DNA from: Pseudodesulfovibrio piezophilus C1TLV30
GTDB taxonomy: Bacteria; Desulfobacterota; Desulfovibrionia; Desulfovibrionales; Desulfovibrionaceae
Reading direction: 5' to 3'
Assembly (NCBI RefSeq): GCF_000341895.1
Contig: NC_020409.1
Coordinates: 1,320,001 to 1,352,000, forward strand
Length of the DNA stretch: 32,000 bases
The notes beneath the pieces are model-generated. The model made no database searches. It was not told the origin of the DNA and saw only the letters and a list, made by a program, of their open reading frames with translations. The stretch's first letter is position 1. Each line of letters starts with the position of its first letter. Shown piece by piece: positions 12,735 through 31,174 of this stretch. Position numbers and translations under genes: made by a program.

Positions 12735-13220
12735 TTACTGGCAAAGGTTTTCAAGGTCTTCTGGATGCTCACGGTAATGCGATAAATCGCGGTGAAATAT
12801 CTTCTTGAGTTCTGGACAAGAGTACTTCTGATACACTCCATAGAAGCGAGTATATACACCGCAATAATGGAATACATCTGCTTGATGAACTGTTAACTGA
12901 TTATCACCGAAAGTCATTGAGACTGCACCCTGATCTCCCATGTCGGTCGGAGGGAAGTCAGCTATGAGTTTCATTCCTGACAGTTTCCCAACACCACCCA
13001 CATCACAATCCCCTGAGATCATGGTTTTAGGGCCATTACCGACATGCCCTCCACTGAGAGCGACTGTCACATCATCGCCCTCGACAGTCACATGGACAGT
13101 CGAATAGACATCACCTTTGTTGAGATACCAGCCAGCAATATCTGCCTCACCACCTGCCAGGGAATACGAAGCAGCTATTAATACAAGCAGAAATGCGATT
13201 AACAGTCTAATGCTGGTCAC
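12735..13220 (-). CDS. Secreted candidate immunity protein for the muramidase-like toxin domain (paralog of 27405..27896).
   Basis: Signal peptide MTSIRLLIAFLLVLIAASYSLAGG. It aligns along its whole length with the 27405..27896 product and shares the C-terminal block C..Y.RF.G.Y.KY.C.E.KKIF.RDL......P..LE.LCQ. It lies immediately downstream of, and overlaps by 14 nt, the orphan toxin fragment. Confidence 0.7.
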   Translation of the reverse strand: MTSIRLLIAFLLVLIAASYSLAGGEADIAGWYLNKGDVYSTVHVTVEGDDVTVALSGGHVGNGPKTMISGDCDVGGVGKLSGMKLIADFPPTDMGDQGAVSMTFGDNQLTVHQADVFHYCGVYTRFYGVYQKYSCPELKKIFHRDLSHYREHPEDLENLCQ

Positions 13221-14220
13221 CTTTCACTCCACCAAGTTCTTTATCGAACAATTCAAGAGCTTCTTTTTTCTCAAGAACCATTCTTCGATCATACCCTTTC
13301 TTCTGATTGGGTGGACACTTCTTACACCTTGTAGCCCTTTCATCATAGATAGCTTCAATCACTTTTCTTTCGTACTCAGGACTTGAACTATCCATACCTT
13401 TTGTTGTTTTCTCGACACGTTTAGCGGCGGCACCGATAAGCTCTGGCCCTTTGTGCTGCACACCAGTTGACCAGACCACATCTCGCAAAGTGGCAGAACC
13501 TTCAGTAGCATCCAGCCCGACCTTATCTTTCAAAGCGGACGCTGTTGGTCTGTAATGCGTTTCCTTGATGAAGGAGTGCTGGCTCTTTCTGAACTCTTCA
13601 GGATGCTTTTCAGAAAACTCTTTCCACCTATCGGAAAATCGTCTGATTCGACATATTGTTCGACAGTGCCACCAGTTTCACCTGTTTCGTGGTTCTTGCT
13701 CGTCATCTGATACAGGCCATACGATACACCGCCTGGGTCACCTTTGCCAGTAGAAACTGTACCGGCACCACGACCTCCGGTTTCGTATTTCTCTGACAGT
13801 TTACCCAAACTGAGAGGGTCTTCAGGAGTAGATTGTGGCTTTCCCTTATCTCCTTCTTCACCATTTGGAGCAGAACTTTCATCTGCTTCAGGCTTTGCTC
13901 TCTTCTCACCACCAGCATCACTCGCAGTGCCGGTGTCGTTCTCAGCATACATCTCGGCATCTTCCATCTTGAATCCTGGTTTGGCACCCGGAACATCTTC
14001 ATTTTCAGACGCTCGCGCTTTCTTTAGGTCAACACCAGCATATGTCAGATACTTGTCGTACATGGCATCAGCATCTTTCTCGTCAAACTTGGCCTCTGAC
14101 AGAACGTATTTGTTGATAAGATCAAAAGCTGCATCGTCATGCGCCTGAACACCTTTCTCATCTTTGACTCTTGGCGAGACGCTGCAAGCCTTAGTCGAGG
14201 ACGTTACGGGAACGCTCGTT
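13207..14220 (-). pseudogene. Orphan polymorphic-toxin cassette A: 5'-truncated and degraded, with a muramidase-like C-terminal domain.
   Basis: It retains family sequence only from ...LNERSRNVLD onward. There is a TAA at 14191-14193 where paralogs have Lys, plus a small deletion. The C-terminal domain (LSEKYETGGRGAGTVSTGKGDPGGVSYGLYQM...) is split into two ORFs (13530..14063 and 13207..13533) by a 1-nt loss in the homopolymer run at 13635-13638. The alternative frame reads FSDRWKEFSEKHPEEF..., matching the cassette D paralog. Confidence 0.75.
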
Positions 14221-14264
14221 ATTTTTTTTCAATTAAAACTACAGCCATAGACAGGTGATATCGA

Positions 14265-14729
14265 ATGGGGTATTTTTCTTATATGGAACACGCTAGAAGA
14301 CACGTACATCTCTTGTTGCTTGGTATTTTTTGCATTTCTGCAAGTTACTCATTTTGGGTATACTCCAATGCCCCTCAGTACCCTTTACTTATCCCAATTT
14401 GCGCAACCATTTTGCCTTGCCTCTTGGCCTATCTCTGCTGGAATCTTTTTATTAAAAACACCCAGAATAAGAGCAAGGCAATAGGACTTGTAATGGGATT
14501 TGCGTGCGGATGGTCAATCCTCTGCTTTGGTTTTGTAGGATGGCTTTTGGATGCAGTGATCACTGGACGGACAGGTCAGTTGAACTTTGGAGACTTCTCC
14601 TCGATTGCACAACTGATATTTTTTTTCGGCCCGACTTACCTATTACTTTTGAAGGGGTGGATTCCCTTACTGCTTTGTACGCTGCTTGTCTTTTTTCTTG
14701 CAGGCAACATTAGTAATAAACAAAGGTAA
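14265..14729 (+). CDS. Small polytopic membrane protein (about 4 TM): candidate immunity protein for the unknown helical toxin domain, encoded convergently to the toxin.
   Basis: Hydrophobic segments run throughout the protein. Its upstream DNA (GATATCGAATGGGGTATTT) is homologous to the DNA upstream of 25155..25616, which holds the same position relative to the paralogous toxin. The real start may be the ATG at 14283. Confidence 0.6.
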   Translation: MGYFSYMEHARRHVHLLLLGIFCISASYSFWVYSNAPQYPLLIPICATILPCLLAYLCWNLFIKNTQNKSKAIGLVMGFACGWSILCFGFVGWLLDAVITGRTGQLNFGDFSSIAQLIFFFGPTYLLLLKGWIPLLLCTLLVFFLAGNISNKQR

Positions 14730-14755
14730 AGCCAGAGGCCCTAGCCTCTGGCTTT
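14728..14755. terminator. Bidirectional hairpin terminator between the convergent immunity and toxin genes.
   Basis: AAAGCCAGAGGC-CCTA-GCCTCTGGCTTT is a perfect 12-bp stem flanked by A and T runs. Confidence 0.7.
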
Positions 14756-14767
14756 CTTTCCTCAGTC

Positions 14768-16248
14768 CTATTTGTAAACGGGAGGCTGTATTGGTTTCGT
14801 ATCTACTCTTGAATCGATGGCCTTTGCGAGTTCATATTTGCTGGGCATGAGGTGCTTAATACCCGTTCCAATTGTTTCGGCAGCCTTGCCAAATCCTTTT
14901 TTGTCATAGATTTCATAGGCAACTTCAAGAGACTCTTTGATCGCTTTTGAATCAATCATATCCATACGATCCACGACCTTGATTATCTTATCAATATCTT
15001 CCTGCGGCAAATCAGCCAATCCAGCTTCAAGATACGCTTTGGAATGAGAATCATAAGCCTTCTCTTTCAGTTTCTCAGGTTTTGATTCGTCCCACTCGCC
15101 GCGACGAAGGCCTGCTTCCATCTTGAACTGCAACTGGTCTTTGGTTCGTTCCATCCATTCCTGGCCTTCCTTGGAAAGTTCAGGTTTCAGCTTGTCGAAC
15201 CGCTTGACGTACTTGTCGCCATACTCGCGATAGTAGTAGGAGCCTCTTTGCCCAGATTGCGCTCCTCAAAGTCCTGGGCGCGTTTTTCATAGTATTCGGT
15301 TTTACCCAGGTCGTCCTTGATCCATGTGGGCTTGGCTCCCGGCTTCTGCCTGTAATGCTCCTCAACATCCTTCACGCTATTTCCGGTTTGCTTTTCCCAC
15401 TCACCTATGAGTCGAGCAGCTTTCGTTGGGGTGTCAGGCTTGGTGGCTTCAGCTTCCATCTCCCCGGCATGCTCTGCAGAAGACTTGGTAGGAGGCGCTT
15501 CTTGAACTTCTGTCGGCTCTCTGGCCGCCGCTTCATTTTGTTGCTGCGCCGGCTGCTCCTCTGGAGCGCCATCGGCGACTGTTGGAGCATCCGCAGGTTC
15601 TGCCTTTTCAACGCCTGCATAGCTCAAATACGTATCGTACATGGCATCAGCATCTTTCTCATCGAACTTGGCCTCGGACAGCACATATTTGTTGATGAGG
15701 TCGAAGGCCGCATCGTCATGCGCCTGGACGCCCTTGTCGTCCTTTGCGCCGAGCGCTCCCTGAGCGATACGCTGTAAGCCTTTGTCGAGCACGCTTTTGG
15801 AGCGCTCGTTGAGCTTATCAACGGCGAACCGATGGCCCTGTTTCAGGAAGCCGTCCTTGATCTTGGGTAAAGTTTCAGACAATGCTCCATGTCGCTTTCC
15901 TCCCTTGGGGAGATCAGACAGAATGCCATGCTCATAGTCGTCGAACTGCTTTTTCAGATTGGTCGCATCCTTGGACGGTTTCTTGCCAGTGACGTTCTTC
16001 TGCCAGCCGGCCAGCCCCTTACCGAAGAAGTCGTGCGCCTCGTTTTCCTTCTCAACAATTGTATTGAGCCGATCCAGATCATGGTACGCATCACGCTTCT
16101 GTTGTCGTGGTTGCTGCCGTTGGTTTTGATTCTTGAAGCCGATGCCCATTTCCAGCGCAGATTTACGCTGTCCGGGTGTTGCATTGTCGAGCATATTCTT
16201 CTGCTCGTCCGAGTTCATATTGATAAGTGATTTTCCAAAATCAAACAT
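14768..16248 (-). pseudogene. Full-length polymorphic toxin B (MFDFGKSL N-terminal domain plus unknown helical C-terminal domain), interrupted by a 1-nt frameshift.
   Basis: ORFs 15187..16248 and 14768..15154 together are colinear with the uninterrupted paralog 25636..26613. GATAGTAGT-AGG at about 15237 contrasts with GATAGTAGTCAGG at about 26096, so one C is missing. This may be a genuine pseudogene or a sequencing error. Confidence 0.8.
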
Positions 16249-16425
16249 ACTTCAGTTTCTCCTGTCACGATGTTGATTGATAAAGATCAAGCATCATAAC
16301 CTGGGTTTTCGGCTCAAGATAAAAACGGGCGAAAAAGGATACTCAAAGGATGAAAAAGCATAAGAAAGCAGCTTGACATGGTTCAAAGGCAAGGTCTGGC
16401 GAAAGGACGGCCGAATAAAATCTTG
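16249..16425 (-). promoter_or_regulatory. Conserved structured 5' leader / promoter region of the toxin genes (copy 1 of 3).
   Basis: It aligns with 20532..20705 and 31175..31350. It contains a hairpin just upstream of the RBS, a second element with alternative pairings (TTTTCGCCC / CCCGTTTTT / CGAAAA), and the invariant block CATGTCAAGCTGC (sense strand). Confidence 0.55.
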
Positions 16426-16660: not shown

Positions 16661-16752
16661 AAAAAGGCTTAGAAGGAAAACCTTCTAAGCCTTTATAGTC
16701 ATTGGTGGAGCTGGAGGGAATCGAACCCACGACCTCTTGAACGCAATTCAAG
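16661..16752 (-). repeat. tRNA-Ala-derived 3' half (nt 16703-16752, anticodon stem to CCA) plus its terminator hairpin; att-like direct repeat, copy 1.
   Basis: The sense strand reads CTTGA-ATTGCGT-TCAAG-AGGTC-GTGGG-TTCGATT-CCCTC-CAGCTCC-A-CCA, then GGCTTAGAAGG-TTTTC-CTTCTAAGCC-TTTTT. No D-arm or 5' acceptor strand lies upstream, so this is not a complete tRNA gene. Confidence 0.8.
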
Positions 16753-16775: not shown

Positions 16776-17186
16776 TTATTGAAGATAAGAATTCACCTTC
16801 TCTGGGCACATATCCATCGCTGCACCCAAAGCTTTGTCTGGCGTTAAAAATTCAACACTAAACCAATCCCCTCCAGTGGAGATCGCATGTTTGGGTAGCT
16901 CGAAACCACTTGATCCGATTCGGACAATGACAGTCTCATATGGACAGTTAAGCCGAACCTCTTTCAACTCGTTCATTTTCTCAATGAGCATCACACTCGT
17001 CACATAGATCGTTTCTTCCACTCCATCCGCCAAATGCCGCCTGCCCTTACCAACGTATATTATCTCCACGTTTTCGCATAGCACAACAGTTTCGCACGCG
17101 GATGACAGGTCAACAAAACCCACCATCCACATACATATAACAATCACGGCAATGCAGATTCTATTCACTCCACACCTCGTGCTCAA
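16776..17186 (-). CDS. Hypothetical secreted or membrane-anchored protein; candidate immunity for the upstream MuF-motif fragment.
   Basis: N-terminal hydrophobic segment ICIAVIVICMWMVGFV. It overlaps the end of 17161..17721 and I recognised no motifs in it. Confidence 0.45.
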   Translation of the reverse strand: MSTRCGVNRICIAVIVICMWMVGFVDLSSACETVVLCENVEIIYVGKGRRHLADGVEETIYVTSVMLIEKMNELKEVRLNCPYETVIVRIGSSGFELPKHAISTGGDWFSVEFLTPDKALGAAMDMCPEKVNSYLQ

Positions 17187-17721
17187 GAGTGTAGTTGATC
17201 ATAACGTTGTCCGAACCGGCAGCGACCATATGTATCCGCCAATGCACCGGCGGCTCCTGGCTTGCGTCCAACGAAGTTGAGTTGCTCGAAAACGACATAC
17301 ATGTAATCTGCTCAGAATGGTCGTGGTTAGTCGACAAATGGACACCAGAAGTAAGCCCGCCAGAGATGCCCTCAAAAAATATTTTAACATGATCTCCACC
17401 CGTAAAGGTCTCATATGCATGCCCCGTTAACGGCCCATTAATATATCGTTTCGGTCTCCGCAATGGATGTTTCTTTATCTCGCATTTACATTTAGGATGC
17501 GGACGTTCCGGTTCTTCTATAAACTCTTTTCCTTCCATAGCCTTACATGTTTCACATGCTCTCTCTTTAGGATGCACAGTCCAGTAGTAATTACCTTTTG
17601 GGTTTTTAGGTGGTTTTTGATTATTACTATCATGCTTCGCTCCAGCCTTTTTGAACTTCGCTAGGCTCTCTTGAGTTGAAATCCCCACCATACGTTTTGG
17701 CATCCCGTGTCCCGTGAACAA
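17161..17721 (-). CDS. Fragment of a MuF/SPP1-gp7-like polymorphic toxin: C-terminal MuF motif plus an unknown C-terminal domain of about 100 aa.
   Basis: ERACETCKAMEGKEFIEEPERPHPKCKCEI matches the end motif of phage head-morphogenesis (MuF/gp7) domains, (D/E)RxCxxCxxxxGKxF...PxHPxCxC. Only about 60 aa precede it. The listed start is a TTG; an ATG is at 17703. The frame opens only 24 codons upstream of 17721, so the MuF domain is truncated. Confidence 0.45.
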   Translation of the reverse strand: MFTGHGMPKRMVGISTQESLAKFKKAGAKHDSNNQKPPKNPKGNYYWTVHPKERACETCKAMEGKEFIEEPERPHPKCKCEIKKHPLRRPKRYINGPLTGHAYETFTGGDHVKIFFEGISGGLTSGVHLSTNHDHSEQITCMSFSSNSTSLDASQEPPVHWRIHMVAAGSDNVMINYTLEHEVWSE

Positions 17722-17994
17722 ACTGATCGCCTCAAATGTGTTGTACCCGCTTCTCTGCCATCTCTCTTCTCCTTTTGCCCACAGGGCTGTTTATGTGTTT
17801 GCGGGAAGCCTACCACTGGTTTTTCGGAGAAAATCATCGAAACACGACACTGTCGGTCAAATACACTCTGTCGCCCGTCAAACACTCGCTCTGGTTGCTG
17901 AAATACACATTAATTTCAGCATGTTCCTCTTGACAGCTTTTTGAGGAGCTTCGATTTTTGGTCAACAGAATTGTATATTTTTTTGTATATTCCA

Positions 17995-18089
17995 CGAAAA
18001 AAGGCTTAGAAGGAAAACCTTCTAAGCCTTTATAATCATTGGTGGAGCTGGAGGGAATCGAACCCACGACCTCTTGAATGCTATTCAAA
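17995..18089 (-). repeat. tRNA-Ala-derived 3' half (18040-18089) plus terminator hairpin; att-like direct repeat, copy 2.
   Basis: Same 50-nt block as copy 1, but the anticodon loop reads ATAGCAT. The flanking DNA on both sides is homologous to copy 3. Confidence 0.8.
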
Positions 18090-18231
18090 GTCATCGTTTG
18101 TAGTTGTTTGGAATACCTATCGTTTTGAGCGAGGAATATACATCGAGGGTATATTTGCGGGTAAAAGGTATATTTTTGTATATTCCTGGGAGGTATAGAA
18201 ATGGTATATCCGGCCTCCCAGCCGCCCTACT

Positions 18232-18426
18232 CTACAGGGCTAATTTGTTCTCGGACCGGAGACAATCGGATATCCAGACCTTGACCAAAGCCTGTCTGGA
18301 AAGAACGAACCTCCGGGCCTTCTCGTCCATCTCGTTGACCATCCACACCGGGAAACCCACGTTCACTCGCTTGATCTCGCGATCAAAGGTTTCAGAGCCA
18401 ACATTTCTGTTGTCCTTGGACTTCAT
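18232..18426 (-). CDS. CopG/ribbon-helix-helix antitoxin, BrnA-like.
   Basis: KRVNVGFPVWMVNEMDEKARRFVLSRQALVKVWISDCL follows the pattern I recall for antitoxins paired with BrnT (DUF497) toxins. A near-identical paralog lies at 26981..27184. Confidence 0.6.
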   Translation of the reverse strand: MKSKDNRNVGSETFDREIKRVNVGFPVWMVNEMDEKARRFVLSRQALVKVWISDCLRSENKLAL

Positions 18427-18560
18427 AACCCACCTCGCAAGTTTTCATAGAACGGACGACATAGACCAACCATGGCCTTAGTCGGAGAAATTATGACGGT
18501 ATCCCAGAGGTGGACCATGGCTAGGACTTTGTCCGTAGACACTGATATTCTTGATGAAAT
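18423..18560 (-). pseudogene. 5'-truncated remnant of a BrnT (DUF497)-like toxin gene.
   Basis: The frame ending in a TGA that overlaps the BrnA-like ATG reads ...STDKVLAMVHLWDTVIISPTKAMVGLCRPFYEN.... This resembles the BrnT C-terminus (L.VVHT.R.D.IRIISARKAT..E...Y). There is no N-terminal half and no start codon. Confidence 0.3.
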
Positions 18561-18602
18561 GGTATACTTTTTATATCAGAAGTACACCATTTTGAATTGA
18601 GC

Positions 18603-18636
18603 AAAAAAAAAGGGTGAGGTTACGACCTCACCCTTT
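18603..18636 (-). terminator. Rho-independent terminator downstream of immunity gene C.
   Basis: The sense strand reads AAAGGGTGAGG-TCGTAA-CCTCACCCTTTTTTTTT. Confidence 0.8.
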
Positions 18637-18640: not shown

Positions 18641-19099
18641 TTATTCGCTTGTTGGGATTTTCTGCCCTGTAGCCGTTTCATACTCCTCGACAGGAACCCA
18701 CCTAACTGTACCGCAGCAAACATCACCCTCAATGGTGCCGATAATCCACTTTTTGATCAGGCTTATTCTCTCTTTAACCAGATGCAACGACTCCATGGGA
18801 GCACAGAAACTCATGGAACTTCCATAATTCTCTCTACCTCCAGGGTAGAGTGCTTGGATGTGTAGTCGTCGGTACTCATCCCATGCCTTTTGTGAGGCAT
18901 TGAATTTTTCCAAAAACTCTGGCTGATCTGAATAGAGCTCATTGATTTCTGCAATCATGGAATTCATAGTTTTCATTGCTTCGGCGTGCGTCAACTGAGT
19001 ATTATCTACCATTTGTTTGTACTCATCTTGAGCACACACAGTTGAAGAGATGACCAGCACCCAAACAACGGCCACAACGCTACGAAAGCACCTATTCAT
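18641..19099 (-). CDS. Periplasmic lysozyme-inhibitor-like protein (LprI/DUF1311-like); candidate immunity to the GH24 toxin.
   Basis: Signal peptide MNRCFRSVVAVVWVLVISSTVCAQ. A helical domain carries the ...ASQKAWDEYRRLHIQALY... pattern typical of DUF1311. The ATG at 19099 overlaps the toxin stop (ATGAATAG). The ORF-track start at 19135 would add 12 aa ahead of the signal peptide. Confidence 0.65.
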   Translation of the reverse strand: MNRCFRSVVAVVWVLVISSTVCAQDEYKQMVDNTQLTHAEAMKTMNSMIAEINELYSDQPEFLEKFNASQKAWDEYRRLHIQALYPGGRENYGSSMSFCAPMESLHLVKERISLIKKWIIGTIEGDVCCGTVRWVPVEEYETATGQKIPTSE

Positions 19100-20531
19100 T
19101 TGTTTTCCCTTTTCTACGGAAACGGCCTGCTTCATTTTTCCTACGATTAATCAAACCGTTGTTCCGTACTTTCTTACCTGTTTTGAGATCAGTGGTATAA
19201 ACCCACCGCTCCATTTCTCCTGCAACGGAATCATAGTCTTTCTTGTTAAGTTTCTTCAACAAGGTTGATGTTTTGAAATTCCCTGGCCCAACATTATAGA
19301 CAAAGCTACTGAGAGCTTCAAACTCATTTTTACTAAGAGGAACTTTTACCATGTCTTTCACGGTTGACTCTGCACTCGCCATATCTTCATCAAAGAGCTG
19401 CATTGCTTCTTCTTCCGAAATCCCATTTCCATAATTTTCCTTGTCTTCCTGGGAACATGACCCATCGTGCAGTTTGTGTCCAAATCCAATGGTACAATGC
19501 CCTGAGGCATCATTATAAAGCTTCGATTCGAAACCTTCGAACTGCCGCACCTCTTTTCGAGCATCATCACTGGAAGAGAGATCTTTTAGTGATGACCGTT
19601 GCCATCCAGTCTGAGCACCTTCCGAAGGAGACTCAACAGCGTCCGATTTCTTTTCCTCAGGTTCCTTCTGACCAACTTGTTCTTTGACCTTCCCACGGTA
19701 CTGGTTGTCGTCATACACCTCATCCTGGCCTTCTGGAATCTGAAGCTCGGCACCCCCTGCTTCGTTCTCACCTCCAGCATCACTCACAGTTCCGGTGTCG
19801 TTCTCAGCATGCATCTCAGCATCTTCCATCCTGAAGCCCGGCTTGGCACCCAGCAACTCTTCGTTCCCGGACGCCCGCGCCTTCCCTACGTCAACACCGG
19901 CATATCCCAGGTACTTGTCGTACATGGCGTCGGCGTCCTTCTCGTCAAACTTGGCCTCGGACGTCACATATTTGTTGATGAGGTCGAAGGCCGCGTCGTC
20001 ATGCGCCTGGACGCCCTTGTCGTCCTTTGCGCCGAGCGCTCCCTGGGCGATACGCTGTAAGCCTTTGTCGAGCACGCTACGTGAACGCTCATTGAGCTTG
20101 TCCAAAGCAAACTGATGCCCCTGCTGCAAGAAACCCTTTTTGATCTTGGGTAAAGTTTCAGACAATGCCCCGTGCCGCTTTCCTCCCTTGGGGAAATCAG
20201 ACAGAATACCATGCTCATAGTCGTCGAACTGCTTTTTCAGATTGGTCGCATCTTTGGAAGGCTTATTTCCGGTGACATTCTTCTGCCAGTCGGCCAGCCC
20301 TTTACCAAAGAAGTCATGCGCTTCGTTTTCCTTCTCAACAATGGTATTGAGCCGATCCAGATCATGGTACGCATCACGCTTCTGTTGCTTCGGTTGCTGT
20401 CGTTGGTTTTGATTTTTGGTACCAATGCCCATTTCCAAAGCAATCTTGCGCTGGCCGCCGGTTGCGTTGTCGAGTCTCTTCTTCTGCTCGTCGGGGTCCA
20501 TGTTGATGAGTGATTTTCCGAAGTCAAACAT
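19092..20531 (-). CDS. Polymorphic toxin C: conserved MFDFGKSL N-terminal domain plus a C-terminal GH24 (T4/lambda-type) lysozyme.
   Basis: Residues 1 to about 250 align with the paralogs. The C-terminus VRQFEGFESKLYNDASGHCTIGFGHKL...EFEALSSFVYNVGPGNF...NGLINRRKNEA carries the GH24 catalytic E...D...T(IG.GH) pattern. Confidence 0.85.
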   Translation of the reverse strand: MFDFGKSLINMDPDEQKKRLDNATGGQRKIALEMGIGTKNQNQRQQPKQQKRDAYHDLDRLNTIVEKENEAHDFFGKGLADWQKNVTGNKPSKDATNLKKQFDDYEHGILSDFPKGGKRHGALSETLPKIKKGFLQQGHQFALDKLNERSRSVLDKGLQRIAQGALGAKDDKGVQAHDDAAFDLINKYVTSEAKFDEKDADAMYDKYLGYAGVDVGKARASGNEELLGAKPGFRMEDAEMHAENDTGTVSDAGGENEAGGAELQIPEGQDEVYDDNQYRGKVKEQVGQKEPEEKKSDAVESPSEGAQTGWQRSSLKDLSSSDDARKEVRQFEGFESKLYNDASGHCTIGFGHKLHDGSCSQEDKENYGNGISEEEAMQLFDEDMASAESTVKDMVKVPLSKNEFEALSSFVYNVGPGNFKTSTLLKKLNKKDYDSVAGEMERWVYTTDLKTGKKVRNNGLINRRKNEAGRFRRKGKTNE

Positions 20532-23430: not shown

Positions 23431-23480
23431 CGCAATAATACAGCCGGGGGGCAGCTATCTCCCAGCTGACAAGGATGCCC

Positions 23481-24165: not shown

Positions 24166-24320
24166 AATTATGGGGACTGGAATTATGGGGACAGCCACCT
24201 ATCTTTCTTCTTTTAATTAGGTGACTGTCTCCATAATTTGGAAATATAATTAGGAAGGTATCCCCTTAATTTTCTTAAACAATAGGAATTAGGGAGGTGT
24301 CCCCCTAATTCCCCCTAATT
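24166..24320. repeat. Cluster of REP-like palindromes.
   Basis: AATTATGGGGAC occurs twice in tandem. Next comes the palindrome AATTATGGGGACAGCCAC-N22-GTGACTGTCTCCATAATT, then AATTAGGAAGGTATCCCCTTAATT and AATTAGGGAGGTGTCCCCCTAATTCCCCCTAATT. The cluster is colinear with 29221..29340. Confidence 0.75.
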
Positions 24321-25154: not shown

Positions 25155-25616
25155 GTGACTAATTCAAGAAAATTCACATGGTTCTTTGCCTTAGGGATTG
25201 CCAGCATAGCGTCAGTTTATGCTACGGCTATCCATTTGTGGTTGGAGGATGCCTCTCACTCAGCCTCCGTAAGCGCGATCTTAGGCTCTCTGGTGCTGAG
25301 TTATGCCATCTGGCTTTGGCTGCATGAAAAACGAGGAGCGAAGGCGTTTAGTGGCGTTGTGCTCGGTGGTCTGTGCGGTTGTCTCGCCTTGATTCTTGGG
25401 CCGTTAGGCTTTGGGATAGAGGACCTTTTAATTGGTCCCAGCAAAGAGCTTGTGCTGTCAGAGTTGGTTTATATCCCCCTCATTAGCATTGCGTCTTTCC
25501 CTTTGATCTTTCTAGTTATGCATGGCTGGGCTGTAGTGTTGGCCGGTGTGCTGCTGGGGGGAGTCATAGAACAGCTGGAGCATCGTTCTTCAGAAAAGAA
25601 TGAGGGGAAGGGGTAG
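25155..25616 (+). CDS. Small polytopic membrane protein; candidate immunity (paralog by position and topology of 14265..14729).
   Basis: About 4 TM segments. It is convergent with orphan toxin E, has a homologous upstream sequence, and uses a GTG start. Confidence 0.55.
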   Translation: MTNSRKFTWFFALGIASIASVYATAIHLWLEDASHSASVSAILGSLVLSYAIWLWLHEKRGAKAFSGVVLGGLCGCLALILGPLGFGIEDLLIGPSKELVLSELVYIPLISIASFPLIFLVMHGWAVVLAGVLLGGVIEQLEHRSSEKNEGKG

Positions 25617-25635: not shown

Positions 25636-26613
25636 TTACTTCTTTTTTCTCGGAACATACGGATTAGTGTCCAATGCCTCCTCGGTTTCATCGTAAGCCT
25701 CCGGATTCGGTGCTGCGACTTTTTTGATGCCTGCCTTTACCGCGCCCCAGCTTTGCTCGCTGACCCCGGTCTCCTTCAGGACTTGCAGAGATTCCTTGAG
25801 CGCTGCCCCATTCGTCATATCCAATCTGTCAACGACCCCGACGATTTTTTCAATGTCCTCCTGGGGAAGATCTGCCAGACCGGCCTCCAAGTATGCTTCA
25901 GAGTGCGAATCATAAGCCTTCTCTTTCAATTCTTCAGGTTTTGATTCGTCCCACTCGCCGCTAAGAAGGCCTGCTTCCATCTTGAACTGCAACCGGTCTT
26001 TGGTTCGTTCCATCCATTCCTGGCCTTCCTTGGAAAGTTCAGGTTTAAGCTTGTCGAACCGCTTGACGTACTTATCGCCATACTCGCGATAGTAGTCAGG
26101 AGCCTCTTTGCCCGGATTGCGCTCCTCAAAGTCCTGGGCGCGTTTTTCATAGTATTCGGTTTTACCCAGGTCGTCCTTGATCCATGTGGGCTTGGCTCCC
26201 GACTTCTGCCTGTAATGCTCCTCAACATCCTTCACGCTATTTCCGGTTTGCTTTTCCCACTCACCGATGAGTCGAGCAGCTTTCGTTGGGGTGTCAGGCT
26301 TGGTGGCTTCAGCTTCCATCTCCCCGGCATGCTCTGCAGAAGACTTGGTAGGAGGCGCTTCTTGAACTTCTGTCGGCTCTCTGGCCGCCGCTTCATTTTG
26401 TTGCTGCGCCGGCTGCTCCTCTGGAGCGCCATCGGCGACTGTTGGAGCATCCGCAGGTTCTGCCTTTTCAACGCCTGCATACCTAAGGTACTTGTCGTAC
26501 ATGGCGTCGGCGTCCTTCTCGTCAAACTTGGCCTCGGACGTCACATATTTGTTGATGAGGTCGAAGGCCGCGTCATCGTGGGCCTTGACGCCATCCTCAA
26601 AAAAGACAACCAT
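25636..26613 (-). CDS. Orphan polymorphic-toxin cassette E: 5'-truncated gene with an intact unknown helical C-terminal domain.
   Basis: The family sequence starts only at ...GVKAHDDAAFDLINKYV (about residue 165 of full-length paralogs), after a junction-created MVVFFED. The C-terminal 250 aa are colinear with toxin B but uninterrupted. No leader and no Shine-Dalgarno are present. Confidence 0.7.
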   Translation of the reverse strand: MVVFFEDGVKAHDDAAFDLINKYVTSEAKFDEKDADAMYDKYLRYAGVEKAEPADAPTVADGAPEEQPAQQQNEAAAREPTEVQEAPPTKSSAEHAGEMEAEATKPDTPTKAARLIGEWEKQTGNSVKDVEEHYRQKSGAKPTWIKDDLGKTEYYEKRAQDFEERNPGKEAPDYYREYGDKYVKRFDKLKPELSKEGQEWMERTKDRLQFKMEAGLLSGEWDESKPEELKEKAYDSHSEAYLEAGLADLPQEDIEKIVGVVDRLDMTNGAALKESLQVLKETGVSEQSWGAVKAGIKKVAAPNPEAYDETEEALDTNPYVPRKKK

Positions 26614-26679: not shown

Positions 26680-26743
26680 CTCCCCCCTAAATATAATCCT
26701 CACCCACCCGATATCATTTGTATATTCTTTTGTATATTCCACG

Positions 26744-26836
26744 AAAAAAGGCTTAGAAGGAAAACCTTCTAAGCCTTTAAATTCATTGGTGGAGCTGGAG
26801 GGAATTGAACCCACGACCTCTTGAATGCCATTCAAA
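26744..26836 (-). repeat. tRNA-Ala(GGC)-derived 3' half (26787-26836) plus terminator hairpin; att-like direct repeat, copy 3.
   Basis: The sense strand reads TTTGA-ATGGCAT-TCAAG-AGGTC-GTGGG-TTCAATT-CCCTC-CAGCTCC-A-CCA. The loop AUGGCAU and the 3' end AGCUCCACCA match what I recall of E. coli tRNA-Ala(GGC). Confidence 0.8.
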
Positions 26837-26980
26837 TGCACAATCTGTAATTGTTTGGAATACTTAATCTTTATAAAGAGGAATATACATCGAGGGTATA
26901 TTTACGGGCATAAGGTATATTTTTTGTATATTCTTGGGAGGTATAGATATGGAACCTATTCTACCTCCCAAAGCCCTACT

Positions 26981-27184
26981 CTACAGGGCCAGCTTGTTTT
27001 CAGACCGGAGACAATCGGATATCCAGACCTTGACCAATGCCTGTCTGGAGATACCGAGCCGTCCGGCCCTCTCGTCCATTTCCTTGACCATCCATACCGG
27101 GAAATCAACATTCACTCGTTTGATCTCTCGCTTGTAGGTTTCAGAATCAGAGACGCTTCTCTCGAAGTTGTCCTTGGACTTCAT
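26981..27184 (-). CDS. CopG/RHH antitoxin, BrnA-like (paralog of 18232..18426).
   Basis: KRVNVDFPVWMVKEMDERAGRLGISRQALVKVWISDCLRSENKLAL. A frameshifted BrnT-like remnant (...IIPTRTKAVFVRPFYEN*) lies upstream at about 27195-27320. Confidence 0.6.
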   Translation of the reverse strand: MKSKDNFERSVSDSETYKREIKRVNVDFPVWMVKEMDERAGRLGISRQALVKVWISDCLRSENKLAL

Positions 27185-27365
27185 ACACCACCTCGCTAGT
27201 TTTCATAGAACGGACGAACAAAGACAGCCTTCGTCCTCGTTGGAATTATCATGACGATATCCAACGTGTAGGAAGATGGCTAGGACTTTGTCCGTAGACA
27301 CTGATATTCTTGATGAAATGGTATACTTTTTATATCAAAAGTACACCGTTTTGGATTGAGCAAAG

Positions 27366-27395
27366 AAAAAGGGTGAGGCCGTAACCTCACCCTTT
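27366..27395 (-). terminator. Rho-independent terminator downstream of immunity gene D.
   Basis: The sense strand reads AAAGGGTGAGG-TTACGG-CCTCACCCTTTTT. Confidence 0.75.
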
Positions 27396-27404
27396 GATCC
27401 GAAA

Positions 27405-27896
27405 TTACTGGCAGAGGTCTTCCAGTGCTTGGGGGTCATCATCCCCATAGCCTAAGTCTCTCGAAAATATCTTTTTGATTTCCGAGCAAGTATACTTCTT
27501 ATACTTTCCAAAGAAGCGTGTGTTGACCCCACATCCGGCAAAATGGGGAAGAGCATTTATGACTTCCAACTCATTATCACCGAATTCAATATGAACATAG
27601 GGGTCATCCACACGGTCCTCGAAAACATAGGTGGCTATTACACTGTTTCCTTTGAGTGTCCCTCTGGCAAGAAGCTTACAATCAGAGGGAACGGTCACGT
27701 CTTCCCGCTTGCCGGAGTGACCACCCCAAAGGCGGATGGTCACATCCCCATTATTCCCGTCTATGTAGACCAACGAATGCGCCCCACTACTGTGGACATT
27801 CAGGTAAATCCCCGAAACAGATTCGGCAGATGATGACCCTACTGAGGCAAGGATAAAGACAAAGACCAGTATCATTTTGGATGCAACATTTATCAT
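27405..27896 (-). CDS. Secreted candidate immunity protein (paralog of 12735..13220).
   Basis: Signal peptide MINVASKMILVFVFILASVGSSSAES. It shares the C-terminal block with 12735..13220. Its start lies 2 nt after the stop of the toxin D C-terminal ORF. Confidence 0.7.
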   Translation of the reverse strand: MINVASKMILVFVFILASVGSSSAESVSGIYLNVHSSGAHSLVYIDGNNGDVTIRLWGGHSGKREDVTVPSDCKLLARGTLKGNSVIATYVFEDRVDDPYVHIEFGDNELEVINALPHFAGCGVNTRFFGKYKKYTCSEIKKIFSRDLGYGDDDPQALEDLCQ

Positions 27897-27898
27897 CG

Positions 27899-29213
27899 TT
27901 ATTCTTTTCGACCCTTCTTCAATTTGTTAAGCGCATCAAGTTTTTCACGTTCGAGTCTTTTCTGAACGTTCTCTCTCACCTTCTTGGACGAACCTCCAAA
28001 GCGAGTTTTTCTTTCTTCGTAGATGGCTTCTATCAAGTCCGATTCAAACTCTTGACTCGAAGGATCGAATCGTTCCTCCTGTTTGAGTTTTTCAACAGCC
28101 TTCTTCACCACATTGGTGTCGGGGCCATGCTGCACTCCAGTCGACCATAACACTTGCTGTACTGTCTTTGAGTGCTTGTCAGCATCAAGACCAGATTCTT
28201 TTGCGCCATTTGCGACAGGCAAATAGTGACCGTCATAGATGAATTTATCTTGGCGACGTTCAAATTCCTCAGGATGCTTGTCTGCCATTTATCGCCACTT
28301 CTTGTCGAACTCAGCAGACCCCGGAGTCAGTCCTTCAAACTCGTTCTTCCAAGGAAAATCCTTAGATGTCACGAATTCTTTGACTCTACCTCCAACTTCC
28401 CCCTTGTGTCTACTTGTCATTTGATACTTGCCATACGATTTGCCACCCAAATCTCCTTCCCCAGAAGAAATGGCATGCGAACCGTCTTTGCCTGATTCAT
28501 ACTTCTCTGACAGTTCGCCAAGATCAGCGTGTGCATTGGGAGCCTCGCTCTGTGGTTTCTGTCTTTCTTTCTGCTGCTCCAGGTCTTTGACCTTCCCTCG
28601 ATACCGATGACCGTCATACATCTCGTCCTTCCCTTCCGGGATTTCAAGGTCAGCGTCTTCTGCCTTTTCCTCACCGCCAGCATCACTCGCTGTATCAGTG
28701 TCATTCTCAGCATACATCTCGGCATCTTTATCATCAAACTTGGCCTCGGACAGCACGTACTTGTTGATAAGATCGAAAGCGGCGTCATCATGGTTCTGGA
28801 TATCCTTTTCGTCTTTGGCACCGAGCGCACCTTTGGCAAGACGCTGCAAGCCCTTGTCGAGGACAGTACGGGAACGCTCGTTGAGTTTGTCCAGTGCAAA
28901 CTGATAGCCCTGTTGCAAAAAGCCTTTTTTGATGTCGGGCAAGGACTTGGAAAGAGCTTCATGCCGTTTACCACCCTTGGGTACTGTGGAAAGGACAGAA
29001 TGTTCATAGTCATCAAACTGCTTCTTGAGGTTGGTAGCATCTTTGGACGGCTGATTGCCGGTGACATTCTTCTGCCAGTCAACCAGCCCTTTACCAAAGA
29101 AGTCATGCGCTTCGTTTTCCTTCTCAACAATTGTATTGAGCCGATCCAGATCATGGTACGCGTCCCGCTTCTGTTGCTTCGGTTGCTGTCGTTGGTTTTG
29201 ATTTTTGATGCCT
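27899..29213 (-). pseudogene. Orphan polymorphic-toxin cassette D: 5'-truncated (lacks the first ~37 codons and the start codon), with an in-frame TAA inside the muramidase-like domain.
   Basis: The frame is open from the REP junction and reads GVGIKNQNQRQQPKQQKRDAYHDLDRLNTIVEKENEAHDFFGKGL.... It contains no ATG, GTG or TTG until 28942. A TAA at 28289-28291 (KKWR*MADKHPEEF) sits where cassette A reads DRWKEFSEKHPEEF. There is also an internal deletion of the YAGVD...KPGFKMED linker. Confidence 0.75.
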
Positions 29214-29220
29214 ACCCCAG

Positions 29221-29425
29221 AATTATGGGGACAGTCACCCGCTGCGCAGAATTATGGGGACAGTCACTTATCTTTCTTCTTTTAATTAGGTGACTGTCCC
29301 CATAATTTGAAAATATAATTAGGGAGGTGTCCCCCTAATTCCTGGCCAATCGCGCCAAACCATCTCCTCTTGTTATGGAATAAAGAATAATTTAGTAAGG
29401 TGTCCCCGAAATTCCTCCCCGAAAT
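29221..29425. repeat. Cluster of REP-like palindromes at the truncation junction of cassette D.
   Basis: AATTATGGGGACAGTCAC occurs at 29221-29238 and 29250-29267. The perfect 18-nt inverted partner GTGACTGTCCCCATAATT is at 29290-29307, with a 22-nt spacer. AATTAGGGAGGTGTCCCCCTAATT is at 29317-29340, and a degenerate unit (AAGGTGTCCCCGAAATTCCTCCCCGAAATT) lies near 29396-29425. Confidence 0.8.
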
Positions 29426-29427
29426 TC

Positions 29428-29799
29428 TCAAAAAAAGTCGATGTATATTCCCAGAACATATGATTCATCCTCTTTTACAATCCGTCTGACTTCTCTGTTT
29501 GGGCCGATGAAAAGCCAAATCCGTGTCGTGCCTATCTCGCTCGGATTGTCAGCAGATGGAGCGGCCATAAACTCCCACTCACCCCATGGAGTGGAATGGA
29601 CATAAAAATCCCCTTTGATATCCCATGAACAGCAGGTTCGAGGCTGCCCCAATTTGATATGAAGCTGTGTACGAGACATCCCCTTTTTAATGCTATCCCA
29701 TTGTGTCGGATACCCAGCGTAAAGATAGAGAACACTGCATCCGACACTAAGGACCAGCCAGTAAAGTAGTATTTTCATAGTAAGTAATAGAGGTTTCAT
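29428..29799 (-). CDS. Candidate immunity protein (secreted, possibly a lipoprotein) for the NlpC/P60 amidase toxin.
   Basis: MKPLLLTMKILLYWLVLSVGCSV is a signal or lipobox-like sequence. An AGGAGG RBS lies 6 nt upstream of the ATG at 29799; the ORF-track start is 29829. The gene begins 50 nt downstream of the toxin F stop. Confidence 0.65.
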   Translation of the reverse strand: MKPLLLTMKILLYWLVLSVGCSVLYLYAGYPTQWDSIKKGMSRTQLHIKLGQPRTCCSWDIKGDFYVHSTPWGEWEFMAAPSADNPSEIGTTRIWLFIGPNREVRRIVKEDESYVLGIYIDFF

Positions 29800-29848
29800 G
29801 ATCGCCTCCTTGTATATTGAAATCACCACCTAACTGGCATTATGTCAA

Positions 29849-31174
29849 CTATCTTTGATTGCCGGTTTTTCCGACATATCGTCTGTATGTTATTTCCCCG
29901 GCTTGCCCCTCTCTGAATCCCCAGTCGTTTTCGACCACTTTATTTTTTATCGATGAAGCAGAGACCGTCTTACCGTCACCGCTAACGATGCCAACGTGCT
30001 CAGAACTTGCTGCAACGTCACCAGGTTTAGGATCATCAACAACAACCCATCCATCTAATTCCATATCTTTATTGGCCCAATCGGCCGCGACGGGCGGATA
30101 CATATCATTCGACAGAGGGTTATTTCCTTCATGGATCAAGGGAACAGGTGTCCCATTTTCTTTGAGAACATCATAAGCGAATTTGTTGCACTTAGTTTTG
30201 CCCCATCCAAAGTCATCTTTGCTTTTGAACTTAGCCCAAGCATCACTCCCTACATACTTTTTCGCTACATAGGCAGAATGTTCAGTGGACCATGCTTTTG
30301 GCTTCACATCATGATCAGCACCAGCCTCCTTCGTCCTTTGCTTGTTCTCAGATTTTTCCTCAGTGTTGCCTTTCCCGGCTATTTTGGGGCCCTGCGCCTC
30401 TGTCTCTTCCTTGCCACCAGCATCACTCACAGTGCCAGTGTCGTTCTCAGCATACATCTCAGCGTCTTCCATTTTGAAGCCCGGCTTGGCTCCCGGTACT
30501 TCTTCATTCTCAGACGCTCGTGCTTTCTCTAGGTCAACACCAGCATAACTCAGATATTTGTCGTACATGGCGTTTGCGTCATTCTCATCGAACTTGGCCT
30601 CGGACATCACGTACTTGTTGATAAGATCGAAAGCGGCATCATCATGAGCTTGTATGTCATTATCACCACTGGCACCAAGTGCGCCTTTAGCCAATCGCTG
30701 CAAGCCCTTGTCAAGCACGCTACGTGAACGCTCATTGAGCTTGTCCAAAGCAAACTGATGCCCCTGCTGCAAGAAACCCTTTTTGATCTTGGGTAAAGTT
30801 TCAGACAATGCCCCGTGCCGCTTTCCTCCCTTGGGAAGATCAGACAGAATGCCATGCTCATAGTCGTCGAACTGCTTTTTCAGATTGGTGGCATCTTTGG
30901 AGGGCTTATTCCCGGTGACATTCTTCTGCCAGTCGGCCAGCCCTTTACCAAAGAAGTCATGCGCTTCGTTTTCCTTCTCAACAATAGTATTGAGCCGATC
31001 CAAATCGTGATAAGCGTCCCGCTTCTGTTGCTTCGGTTGCTGTCGTTGGTTTTGATTTTTGATGCCGATGCCCACTTCCAAAGCCAATTTGCGCTGGCCA
31101 GGTGTTGCATTGTCGAGCATCTTCTTCTGCTCGTCAGGATCCATATTGAGAAGTGATTTTCCAAAATCAAACAT
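29849..31174 (-). CDS. Polymorphic toxin F: conserved MFDFGKSL N-terminal domain plus a C-terminal NlpC/P60-CHAP-type cysteine peptidase (probable peptidoglycan amidase).
   Basis: The N-terminal ~250 aa align with toxins B and C. The C-terminus has GWGKTKCNKFAYDVL (catalytic Cys context) and PGDVAASSEHVGIVSGDG (catalytic His context), in the canonical Cys-then-His order. Confidence 0.8.
   Translation of the reverse strand: MFDFGKSLLNMDPDEQKKMLDNATPGQRKLALEVGIGIKNQNQRQQPKQQKRDAYHDLDRLNTIVEKENEAHDFFGKGLADWQKNVTGNKPSKDATNLKKQFDDYEHGILSDLPKGGKRHGALSETLPKIKKGFLQQGHQFALDKLNERSRSVLDKGLQRLAKGALGASGDNDIQAHDDAAFDLINKYVMSEAKFDENDANAMYDKYLSYAGVDLEKARASENEEVPGAKPGFKMEDAEMYAENDTGTVSDAGGKEETEAQGPKIAGKGNTEEKSENKQRTKEAGADHDVKPKAWSTEHSAYVAKKYVGSDAWAKFKSKDDFGWGKTKCNKFAYDVLKENGTPVPLIHEGNNPLSNDMYPPVAADWANKDMELDGWVVVDDPKPGDVAASSEHVGIVSGDGKTVSASSIKNKVVENDWGFREGQAGEITYRRYVGKTGNQR

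Follow-up and report, generated by a model that had tools for sequence, protein, structure and literature searches.

Organization of the Array

Six homologous gene copies, all on the minus strand, were present within positions 12735-31174 of the 32,000-nt stretch of the Pseudodesulfovibrio piezophilus C1TLV30 genome analyzed here (the window; tblastn E values from 1e-20 to 0; table 1). The original prediction of six paralogous toxin genes was correct in this respect; however, it overstated the number of functional copies, as only toxins A and B are intact (2/6) and the other four are pseudogenes. Copy C, which had been listed with these two as a full-length gene, is frameshifted and reads as two ORFs (353 and 128 aa); its positions 15238-15537 (300 nt) are 99% identical to cassette D. 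The other three copies had been described as 5'-truncated cassettes, which holds for D and E, orphan cassettes that retain part of the N-terminal domain (N-domain), but is incomplete for copy F: it lacks the first ~33 codons, with a 92-nt palindromic repeat adjoining the 5' cut, and has also lost 33 codons in frame across the domain junction and acquired a premature stop at 28289. Many N-domain homologs in other loci are truncated too.

Table 1.— Features of the toxin array and its surroundings (positions in the window)
Feature	Position	Strand	Description
Toxin A leader	31175-31354	−	Conserved 5' leader/promoter region
Toxin A	29849-31174	−	Intact, 441 aa; N-domain (30536-31174), acidic linker, C-terminal CHAP/NlpC-P60-like amidase
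Toxin A partner	29428-29829	−	Candidate immunity protein; lipobox-like signal ..LVLSVGC
Copy F	27899-29218	−	Pseudogene; VgrG3-like_C muramidase payload
Copy F partner	27405-27896	−	Candidate immunity protein; secreted, signal peptide
Island element, copy 1	26718-27395	−	~680 nt; terminator, small conserved ORF (26981-27184), tmRNA (ssrA) 3'-end fragment (26787-26818), ssrA terminator hairpin
Cassette D	25636-26613	−	5'-truncated, starts at N-domain residue ~171; helical payload ORF intact
Cassette D partner	25155-25616	+	Candidate immunity protein; convergent, four-helix membrane protein
Gene after short Rhs toxin	23475-24017	+	Same island
Short Rhs/YD-shell toxin	22183-23430	+	Other toxin cargo, same island
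Toxin B leader	20532-20708	−	Conserved 5' leader
Toxin B	19092-20531	−	Intact, 479 aa; N-domain (19893-20531), C-terminal GH24 phage-type lysozyme
Toxin B partner	18641-19135	−	Candidate immunity protein; secreted, LprI family
Island element, copy 2	17971-18636	−	~680 nt; small ORF (18232-18426), tmRNA 3' fragment (18040-18088; RF00023, E 1e-6)
MuF-like C-terminal fragment	17161-17721	−	Other toxin cargo; fused to unknown domain
Gene after MuF-like fragment	16776-17186	−	Other toxin cargo
Third tmRNA 3'-end fragment	16703-16751	−	Partial element copy, immediately upstream of copy C leader
Copy C	14768-16248	−	Full length, frameshift near 15245; helical payload
Copy C partner	14265-14729	+	Candidate immunity protein; convergent, four-helix membrane protein
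Cassette E	13237-14238	−	5'-truncated, starts at residue ~141; two frameshifts; VgrG3-like_C payload
Cassette E partner	12735-13220	−	Candidate immunity protein; secreted

The same ~135-nt leader precedes every full-start copy inspected, both here and at other loci (20/20). The modules sit on mobile islands, marked by the repeated 3' fragments of the tmRNA gene (ssrA), and Rhs-core toxins, which are also carried in the same island, are plentiful in the genus Pseudodesulfovibrio.

Payloads and Partner Genes

Behind a fixed ..YL.YAGV junction, the copies in the window carry four types of interchangeable C-terminal domains, and at least three additional types were observed in other Pseudodesulfovibrio loci. 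The GH24 lysozyme originally recognized in toxin B was recovered (PF00959, 1.9e-39), the muramidase-like GD.GG.SYG.YQ domain of two copies matched PF21277 T6SS_VgrG3-like_C (171.9 bits in P0042), and the helical domain, described as unknown in the original prediction, gave no family or fold match. The NlpC/P60 amidase was supported in part: the toxin A payload itself scored 22.9 bits against CHAP, below the cut-off of 26, but its ortholog at locus L004 passed with 28.6 bits. In another genome, the payload is a probable M15/LAS peptidase. All assignable payloads are predicted peptidoglycan hydrolases, and no cytoplasm-acting payload was seen in the family.

As predicted, each payload type is accompanied by its own small secreted or membrane protein, and it retains this partner gene across genomes. 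Homologs of the toxin A partner follow CHAP toxins in L001 and L004, and the copy F partner is 91% identical to that of the intact ortholog in L001 and 38% identical to that of cassette E. The toxin B partner, whose likely start is an internal Met at ~19099, was assigned to the LprI family of lysozyme inhibitors with a score that only just exceeds the curated cut-off (PF07007, 23.3 bits vs. 22). Sequence inspection showed a signal peptide, a lipobox or four membrane helices in every partner; the toxins have no signal peptide. Hydrolase payloads have their partner on the same strand, and the helical payload has a convergent multi-pass membrane partner; the helical tails of copies C and D are 58% identical and their membrane partners 22%, which points to codiversification.

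Taken together, the N-domain with its fixed junction and swappable payloads, the type-specific exported partners, the pairing of an LprI protein with a lysozyme and the truncated cassettes that keep part of the N-domain agree with the toxin-immunity grammar proposed originally. We consider it very probable that the array consists of polymorphic antibacterial toxin-immunity modules acting on the cell envelope of rivals, and we infer that the payloads are toxic and that the partners confer immunity. If the genes were instead prophage lysins in decay or housekeeping enzymes that remodel the cell wall, with unrelated downstream genes, one might also find four pseudogenes among six copies, many truncated homologs elsewhere and payloads of phage-endolysin types; however, such a reading is hardly tenable for genes whose partners are payload-specific, conserved across genomes and in one case a dedicated lysozyme inhibitor, where the signal peptide is on the partner and not on the toxin, where warheads have been swapped behind one strongly constrained N-domain, and where holin genes, spanin genes and a phage context are all missing at most loci.

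The Shared N-domain

The N-domain spans residues 1-213, ends at the ..YL.YAGV junction and is all-helical and elongated. Protein identity among the three full N-domains is 88-92% and DNA identity 83-88%, values for which "near-identical" had been too strong a term. Their dN/dS of 0.06-0.08 at a dS of 0.6-1.1 shows a protein domain constrained by strong purifying selection. It matched nothing in Pfam, NCBIfam, PHROGs, PADLOC or PDB, and none of the known trafficking domains (PAAR, Rhs core, VENN, LXG, MIX, etc.) was found in it with Pfam, NCBIfam, PHROGs and PADLOC; the region described as unrecognized thus stayed so in every library and fold search done. When 1.84 billion representative proteins were scanned in full with HMMER, 27 matched, all of one family and, wherever the organism was named, all from Pseudodesulfovibrio; a word-indexed search returned 40. 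On this evidence, the N-domain is a genus-restricted, previously unrecognized candidate delivery domain.

Fold comparison pointed to one conceivable carrier, a phage-like particle. The N-domain would then be descended from, or imitate, the helical portion of hydrolase-bearing podovirus internal virion (ejection) proteins. The toxins would be packed in the capsid of a prophage, a satellite or a gene-transfer-agent-like particle, from which they would be ejected into the periplasm of the target cell; such a mechanism has been proposed for MuF polymorphic toxins. With a query that excluded the hydrolase domain, the annotated Foldseek matches among viral models (best E 2e-3, TMq up to 0.62) were for the most part either tailed-phage proteins of 550-1200 aa that contain a lysozyme, transglycosylase or NlpC/P60 domain or "internal virion proteins" of phiKMV/T7-like phages. 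In addition, a MuF-like toxin fragment lies inside the array, and in two independent contexts remnants of podovirus head genes were located less than 3 kb from an N-domain (a PF19821 capsid gene and an 82-aa gene at L015/L023/L024; a T7-type portal gene, PF12236, with Bbp19 and a scaffold-like gene at L025). Fusions of the helical payload to a second N-terminal module exist as well, and that module directly follows such head genes and occurs in a phage contig. However, no fold match reached E 1e-3, long helical models readily match each other, and profile-profile comparison with ejection-protein candidates of related phages and LKD16 gp36 found nothing; neither was there a confident profile match to any non-toxin family such as phage structural proteins. 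The N-domain was not found in IMG/VR contigs, GenBank phages or PHROGs, intact phages with the matching capsid type carry no N-domain gene, and phage structural genes are missing near most loci. Although MuF toxins and podovirus internal virion proteins (phiKMV gp36, T7 gp16) likewise place a helical N-terminal part before a cell-wall hydrolase, the array family is much shorter (440-510 vs. 750-1300 aa), lies outside phage structural modules and has cognate candidate immunity genes, for which we know of no need in virion lysins. We regard particle delivery as improbable.

Genomic Neighborhoods and Known Toxin Systems

Among the 147 neighboring ORFs of 13 family loci, nothing recurred apart from the ssrA element and the partner gene. 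This observation bears on whether the toxins are type VI secretion system (T6SS) cargo, with the N-domain as a lineage-specific loading domain for VgrG, PAAR, Hcp or an adaptor, injection on contact into the periplasm of neighbors, and the partners as T6SS immunity proteins. Leaderless cell-wall hydrolases with exported partners are the classic pattern of Tae/Tge/VgrG3-type effectors, which also occur as stand-alone mobile pairs (Tse1-3 and orphan MIX effectors are examples of such stand-alone pairs); PF21277 is named after VgrG3, effectors with MIX, FIX or RIX likewise have a shared N-terminal region of ~200 residues before varied toxic domains, and the Rhs-core toxins, the several paralogs per genome and the orphan cassettes would fit as well. 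On the other side, marker domains such as MIX, FIX or PAAR were not detected in the N-domain, no secretion-system gene (vgrG, hcp, PAAR and adaptor genes included) recurred near ~20 loci, no T6SS family was among those listed for the neighbors of the 13 loci, and none was seen in the neighbor tables of six further N-domain loci or beside a short Rhs gene. Furthermore, T6SS machinery is conserved far beyond the single genus to which the N-domain is limited, and the payloads seen act on the envelope only; none of the papers searched names both Pseudodesulfovibrio and type VI secretion, which adds slightly to this side. A T6SS route is rather unlikely, if still more credible than particle delivery.

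LXG toxins of Gram-positive type VII secretion share with the array family an all-helical N-domain of ~200 residues with very long helices, toxin domains that vary at the C-terminus and an immunity gene placed downstream; in contrast, the family has no LXG (PF04740) match and no small helical partner genes, and its host is a diderm with no type VII system known to us. Like Rhs and CdiA toxins, it has a fixed junction motif ahead of a variable toxin and arrays of 5'-truncated orphan toxin-immunity cassettes with residual upstream homology; unlike them, its members are small and have no YD repeats, FHA/TPS domain, VENN or DPxGL motif.

A Possible Bacteriocin-like Route of Delivery

Import resembling that of colicin M or pesticin is our tentative proposal for delivery, possible rather than established. 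We reasoned that restriction to one genus is expected of a receptor-binding domain rather than of a secretion-machine adaptor. Each module is a free-standing unit that has a conserved promoter/leader of its own and, besides the partner gene and ssrA element, no recurrent neighbors, T6SS genes included. The assignable warheads all act in the periplasm, as would suit a carrier able to cross the outer membrane only. The partner layout is the one described for colicins, in which the immunity gene of enzymatic types is on the same strand and that of ionophoric types, encoding a membrane protein, is on the opposite strand (PMC9517006); the helical payload would parallel the latter as a nonenzymatic warhead. 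As in pesticin/Pim and colicin M/Cmi, a leaderless modular toxin combines an N-terminal part (for uptake in those systems, with ~120-210 residues) with a cell-wall warhead, the immunity protein (here a candidate) is exported, and the genes occur singly on mobile DNA, are not accompanied by secretion machinery and have a narrow taxonomic range. A lysis gene is usually absent from group B colicins as well. On the other hand, the N-domain has no sequence or fold similarity to colicin, pyocin or pesticin domains, and no TonB/Tol box or glycine-rich disordered translocation region was recognizable on reading the family sequences, nor a LexA-type palindrome (SOS box) on reading the leaders. Having at least six paralogs per genome, together with truncated orphan cassettes, is more usual for Rhs, CDI and T6SS toxin loci, and one payload family carries the VgrG3 name. 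In Gram-negative bacteria, T6SS effectors are the most frequent kind of leaderless cell-wall hydrolase paired with a periplasmic immunity protein, and to our knowledge no such bacteriocin has been described in anaerobic sulfate reducers.

Each toxin consists of the N-domain, the acidic linker and an exchangeable warhead; under the bacteriocin-like model, it would be harmless in the producer's cytoplasm because it has no signal peptide. The exported partner, in the periplasm or membrane, would neutralize toxin that comes in from sibling cells. The modules are carried by integrative islands directed at the tmRNA gene and by other mobile contexts, where older cassettes would be displaced and then decay. 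The toxin would be released by a means, such as lysis, that needs no dedicated secretion, and its N-domain may then bind an outer-membrane receptor on related Pseudodesulfovibrio cells and take the warhead to their periplasm, and no further.

Six Toxin Copies, Two of Them Intact

Using intact orthologs of other genomes as tblastn queries, we mapped six toxin paralogs on the minus strand, designated copies A-F (table below). The number of copies in the original prediction thus stood; of the three copies read as full length, two proved to be intact. The 5′ ORF of copy C (15187-16248) comprises 353 aa and is identical to a P. piezophilus protein, and the array includes orphan cassettes that have been displaced or truncated. 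Judged from the reading frames, A and B are the candidate functional genes and the other four copies are relics. The shared 213-residue N-terminal region (the MFDFGKSL domain or N-domain, which ends at the ..YL.YAGV junction) had been described as near-identical, a description that had to be abandoned: the three complete N-domains showed 88-92% identity in protein and 83-88% in DNA. Since dS among them was 0.6-1.1 and dN/dS was 0.06-0.08, the paralogs are old and the N-domain is under strong constraint at the protein level. The N-domain is more than a tract of homology retained for recombination.

Coordinates of toxin copies and associated features (window positions unless a locus outside the window, L001 and the like, is named)
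Feature	Position	Strand	Description	Basis
Copy A	29849-31174	-	intact, 441 aa	tblastn
Copy B	19092-20531	-	intact, 479 aa	tblastn
Copy C	14768-16248	-	full length, single frameshift near 15245	tblastn
Copy D	25636-26613	-	begins at residue ~171; payload is an intact ORF	tblastn
Copy E	13237-14238	-	begins at residue ~141; two frameshifts	tblastn
Copy F	27899-29218	-	begins at residue ~34; 33 codons gone in frame over domain junction; stop at 28289	
Conserved leader	20532-20708, 31175-31354, 16249-16357		upstream of B, A and C, respectively; also at 17 other loci	
~680-nt element	17971-18636		after B module	
~680-nt element	26718-27395		after F module	
~680-nt element	near 16700		partial third copy	
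tmRNA (ssrA) 3′-end fragments	16703-16751, 18040-18088, 26787-26818	-	each with terminator hairpin	
tmRNA 3′-end fragments, other loci	L001 9219-9250, 12092-12123; L003 12606-12637; L004 2650-2681, 5740-5771			
Predicted long helices of N-domain	residues 47-85, 91-111, 118-166, 171-191, 197-210			AlphaFold2
Second N-terminal module with helical payload	L025 16487-17356; L027 1363-2496 (P0183); L028 319-1446 (P0179); L029 10001-11152			

Compared with copy A (30500-30600), the 33-codon in-frame deletion of copy F (28700-28760) removed the ..YL.YAGV junction and fused ..KDAD-AMYDKY.. to ..EDAE-MYAEND.., two similar short motifs, which is suggestive of slippage at an internal repeat or of recombination between its copies. 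The 5′ breakpoint of copy F is abutted by the right-hand copy of a 92-nt repeat (24180-24271 and 29249-29340; 92% identity) with an internal palindrome, TTATGGGGACAG..CTGTCCCCATAA, which is possibly a miniature transposable element.

Exchangeable Payloads and Their Partner Genes

The window holds four types of payload behind the same junction, and loci outside it add at least three others. The GH24 lysozyme proposed for copy B was borne out by Pfam (PF00959, 1.9e-39), and the GD.GG.SYG.YQ muramidase-like domain of copies E and F was identified as PF21277, the VgrG3-like C-terminal muramidase, which scored 171.9 bits in an intact ortholog. The NlpC/P60 amidase assigned to copy A fared less well in the copy itself, where the CHAP family reached 22.9 bits against a cut-off of 26, but its ortholog at the outside locus L004 passed with 28.6 bits. 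The payload of copies C and D is a helical domain of ~215 residues, for which no Pfam family and no fold was matched. Because its model has ten helices and its partner is a membrane protein, we considered a colicin-type pore-former, which was rejected as the domain has neither the hydrophobic hairpin nor a colicin fold match. Outside the window, family members carry a probable M15/LAS peptidase (from its motif and a Pfam match at E 0.009), a possible transglycosylase-like domain, and at least one additional warhead domain without assignment. Altogether, at least seven warheads occur behind the N-domain, and each assignable one targets the cell wall.

Each toxin is adjoined by a small gene that is specific to, and co-varies with, the payload, and each payload type retains its own partner in other genomes. 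The gene after the copy B lysozyme belongs to the LprI family of lysozyme inhibitors (23.3 bits against a cut-off of 22), the partner proteins that go with A, E, and F carry a lipobox or signal peptides as read from their sequences, and those of C and D are convergently encoded four-helix membrane proteins. Over 300 nt, the two helical payloads agree at 99% of positions; across the C-terminal ~125 residues, their protein identity drops to 58%, and the partners of the two share only 22% identity. This pattern fits co-diversification of toxin and antidote. The helical warhead and its membrane partner are an uncharacterised candidate toxin-immunity pair. Taken together, paralogs and orthologs alike carry one conserved N-terminal region in front of C-terminal domains that differ and are unrelated to one another, and the family is very probably a polymorphic toxin-immunity system. 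A role other than that of a weapon is highly improbable, as it leaves the payload-specific exported partners unexplained.

An N-Domain Confined to One Genus

The N-domain had no match in Pfam, NCBIfam, PHROGs, or PADLOC; sequence and profile comparisons with the PDB gave nothing above noise, and the spectrin and 14-3-3 matches returned by Foldseek against the PDB were likewise at noise level. The absence of known trafficking domains, claimed from the sequence at the outset, held in these analyses: no MIX, FIX, RIX, PAAR, DUF4150, or Rhs marker was found, the LXG domain (PF04740) was absent from the toxins, as were WXG100-like partner genes, and no domain showed homology to the translocation or receptor-binding domains of colicins, pyocins, or pesticin. 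A word-indexed search of 5.8 billion proteins returned 40 N-domain matches, in which every named organism was a Pseudodesulfovibrio. An exhaustive HMMER profile scan of 1.84 billion representative proteins yielded 27 matches, all of the same family, and no remote relatives. The loci number 12 in four assemblies of species-representative genomes and six in JGI metagenomes. The AlphaFold2 model (pLDDT 80) comprises three short N-terminal helices, a Gln/Asn-rich disordered loop (38-47), and long helices thereafter. No TonB or Tol box was recognisable near the toxin N-terminus in alignments read by eye.

A Shared Leader

All full-start copies, at 20 loci, are preceded by a common leader of ~135 nt with an invariant TGTCAA box. 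Directly before the ribosome-binding site lies a hairpin that we drew by hand and then tested on the alignment, in which it was 87% paired, with 4 of 10 pairs changing on both sides; RNAalifold predicted no consensus structure for the leader alignment, and the leader matched no Rfam family. In a subgroup of four outside loci (L015, L021, L023, and L024), the equivalent stem is predicted to sequester the ribosome-binding site. A sigma-70 scan of the promoter region performed no better than on shuffled sequence, and no sigma-54, sigma-28, or LexA-like sites were seen upstream by eye.

Island Structure and Neighboring Genes

The window's left third encodes an NRPS, multihaem cytochromes, and an ABC exporter of the MacB type. 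From ~12.3 kb to the right end extends an island in which toxin-type genes are mixed with repeats and pieces of insertion sequences. Fragments of the tmRNA 3′ end, recognized by partial matches to Rfam RF00023 (E 1e-6) and by three exact 32-mers where none was expected, lie in the island and also follow toxin modules at L001 (twice), L003, and L004 (twice). Within the window, every copy of the ~680-nt element contains one such fragment, with a terminator hairpin behind it. About 1 kb upstream of the L003 toxin lie genes for a DnaB-like helicase and a tyrosine integrase. No intact tmRNA gene was found in the window or the loci scanned, and the window yielded no tRNA genes and no Rfam matches at gathering score. 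The array looks like piled-up tandem remnants of ssrA-integrating islands.

Several further features of the island were noted. The ~680-nt element contains a small conserved ORF of 64-67 aa (18232-18426 and 26981-27184, both on the minus strand), which by eye resembled a BrnA/CopG-type (ribbon-helix-helix) antitoxin; Pfam returned only a HicB-like match (E 0.064), and the assignment was dropped. A DUF6933 gene (21187-21831, minus strand) matches the PADLOC defence candidate PDC-S63 (2.1e-34), and its 5′ part with the upstream region is duplicated with 85% identity at the array's left edge (12343-12692), so that the duplication brackets ~9 kb of toxin cassettes. Directly upstream of the toxin A leader, a transposase fragment, putatively of the IS3 family (31431-32000, minus strand), is cut off by the window's right end. 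In the small natural-product cluster beside the island (27-9636), an NRPS module (C-A-T-TE, 1333 aa) is followed by an ATP-pyrophosphatase-like gene, the MacB-type exporter, which comprises an ATPase and two permeases, and a methyltransferase-like membrane protein.

The island also contains an Rhs gene (22183-23430, plus strand), followed by another gene (23475-24017, plus strand). The Rhs gene is a member of a large group of short Rhs proteins (687 matches), several per Pseudodesulfovibrio genome, with a common YD-shell of ~300 residues, which is unusually short, and variable C-termini. These proteins have neither a PAAR domain nor a signal peptide. We rejected the idea that this gene is a truncated orphan of a long parent, as the best 120 of the 687 homologs were all 290-600 aa and included no long parent. 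In P. indicus, a short Rhs gene stands alone among housekeeping genes.

In an all-against-all comparison of neighbors at 12 loci, nothing recurred except the partner genes and a single non-coding element. Among 147 neighboring ORFs, no Pfam family other than the payload itself occurred in more than two loci, and none of the top 25 of 90 families listed was a T6SS family. In addition, neither vgrG, hcp, nor PAAR genes nor adaptor genes (DUF4123, DUF1795, DUF2169) recur near N-domain loci, and the gene tables of six further loci contained no secretion machinery, showing instead restriction-modification, CRISPR, insertion sequences, and ordinary metabolism. These results bear on whether the toxins are cargo effectors of a T6SS. 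In Gram-negative bacteria, proteins of this kind most often end up as T6SS cargo, and such delivery would fit the many paralogs and orphan cassettes, and periplasm-acting payloads are, by sequence, paired with periplasmic partners as in T6SS effectors; however, with zero linkage support at the loci examined, we regard it as doubtful.

Phage Carriage of the Toxins

Podovirus head-gene remnants, which match intact podoviruses in IMG/VR, were found within 3 kb of two N-domain contexts only: a capsid gene (PF19821) with an 82-aa gene in the first, and a T7-type portal, Bbp19, and a scaffold-like gene in the second. Besides the N-domain, the helical payload has another fusion partner, a second and unrelated module of ~80 residues (..WI.Y.D..FEPVR..G...WW..P..W.P) at the N-terminus. 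This module directly follows podovirus head genes at L025 and L027 and, at L029, lies in a phage contig beside primase genes; the proteins with this module are a sister family of the toxins that is carried by phages. An ORF of 186 aa (17161-17721, minus strand; counterpart at L004 10219-10809) starts right after a tmRNA fragment and weakly matches the C-terminal motif found in MuF proteins of phage head morphogenesis (Pfam 3.7e-4, PHROG 1.1e-3), followed by an unassigned domain of ~100 residues; it may be a fragment of a MuF-type toxin with its own partner gene (16776-17186, minus strand).

Such a lead raised the alternative that the toxins are loaded into phage-like particles. Against predicted viral structures, Foldseek of the N-domain gave no match at E <= 1e-3; the best, a tentative match, reached E 2e-3, with TMq up to 0.62. 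Most annotated viral matches were tailed-phage proteins of 550-1200 aa with cell-wall hydrolase domains or phiKMV/T7-like "internal virion proteins," and the query itself carried no hydrolase domain. On the other side, the N-domain was absent from IMG/VR, GenBank phages (tblastn), and PHROGs; tblastn against PLSDB plasmids found nothing, and intact podoviruses with the matching capsid type encoded nothing like it. Profile-profile comparisons (hhalign) were blank against LKD16 gp36 and against candidate ejection proteins and large virion proteins of podoviruses sharing the neighboring capsid type, and family genes are not encoded within a phage structural module. We take phage carriage as good evidence for the toxins being mobile cargo and as weak evidence for their packaging in particles, and particle loading is distinctly unlikely.

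A Proposed Route of Delivery

We tentatively favor, short of an even chance, a route resembling that of colicin M or pesticin, because the N-domain is restricted to one genus, the modules stand alone with their own leaders, no linked machinery was found, and the warheads are exclusively envelope-acting. The arrangement of the partners points the same way: they lie on the same strand for the enzymes, and the non-enzymatic warhead is accompanied by a membrane protein on the opposite strand, which is the textbook colicin layout (PMC9517006). The match to colicin-like bacteriocins, in the order of uptake and then killing and in the strand of the immunity gene, is one of layout only; there is no domain homology to the toxins described here, and this, together with the lack of a recognisable Ton/Tol or SOS motif, weakens the proposal.

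It is also conceivable, though rather unlikely, that the MFDFGKSL domain marks a route for periplasm-acting toxins outside T6SS, CDI, Rhs, T7SS, and Ton/Tol-dependent colicin import. One possible form would be a helical module derived from a phage ejection protein, which would be packed into a podovirus-like particle that has been domesticated or would cross the outer membrane by itself. The short leaderless Rhs toxins abundant in the genus might be served by the same route.

Significance of the Family

The polymorphic-toxin grammar is the known part of this system; what is new is an N-domain found in no domain library searched and confined to one genus, a helical warhead with a membrane partner, and a family with no assignable route. 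Sulfate-reducing bacteria are important in marine sediments, in corrosion, and in the gut, and, to our knowledge, such weapons have hardly been studied in them. The family offers a compact handle, in which one strongly conserved domain serves all warheads with no recognisable secretion signal or machine attached. Identifying a binding partner of the N-domain would uncover a receptor pathway for bacteriocins in this lineage or tie a new adaptor to a known machine, and the N-domain could act as a carrier with which lysins are taken past the outer membrane of such bacteria.
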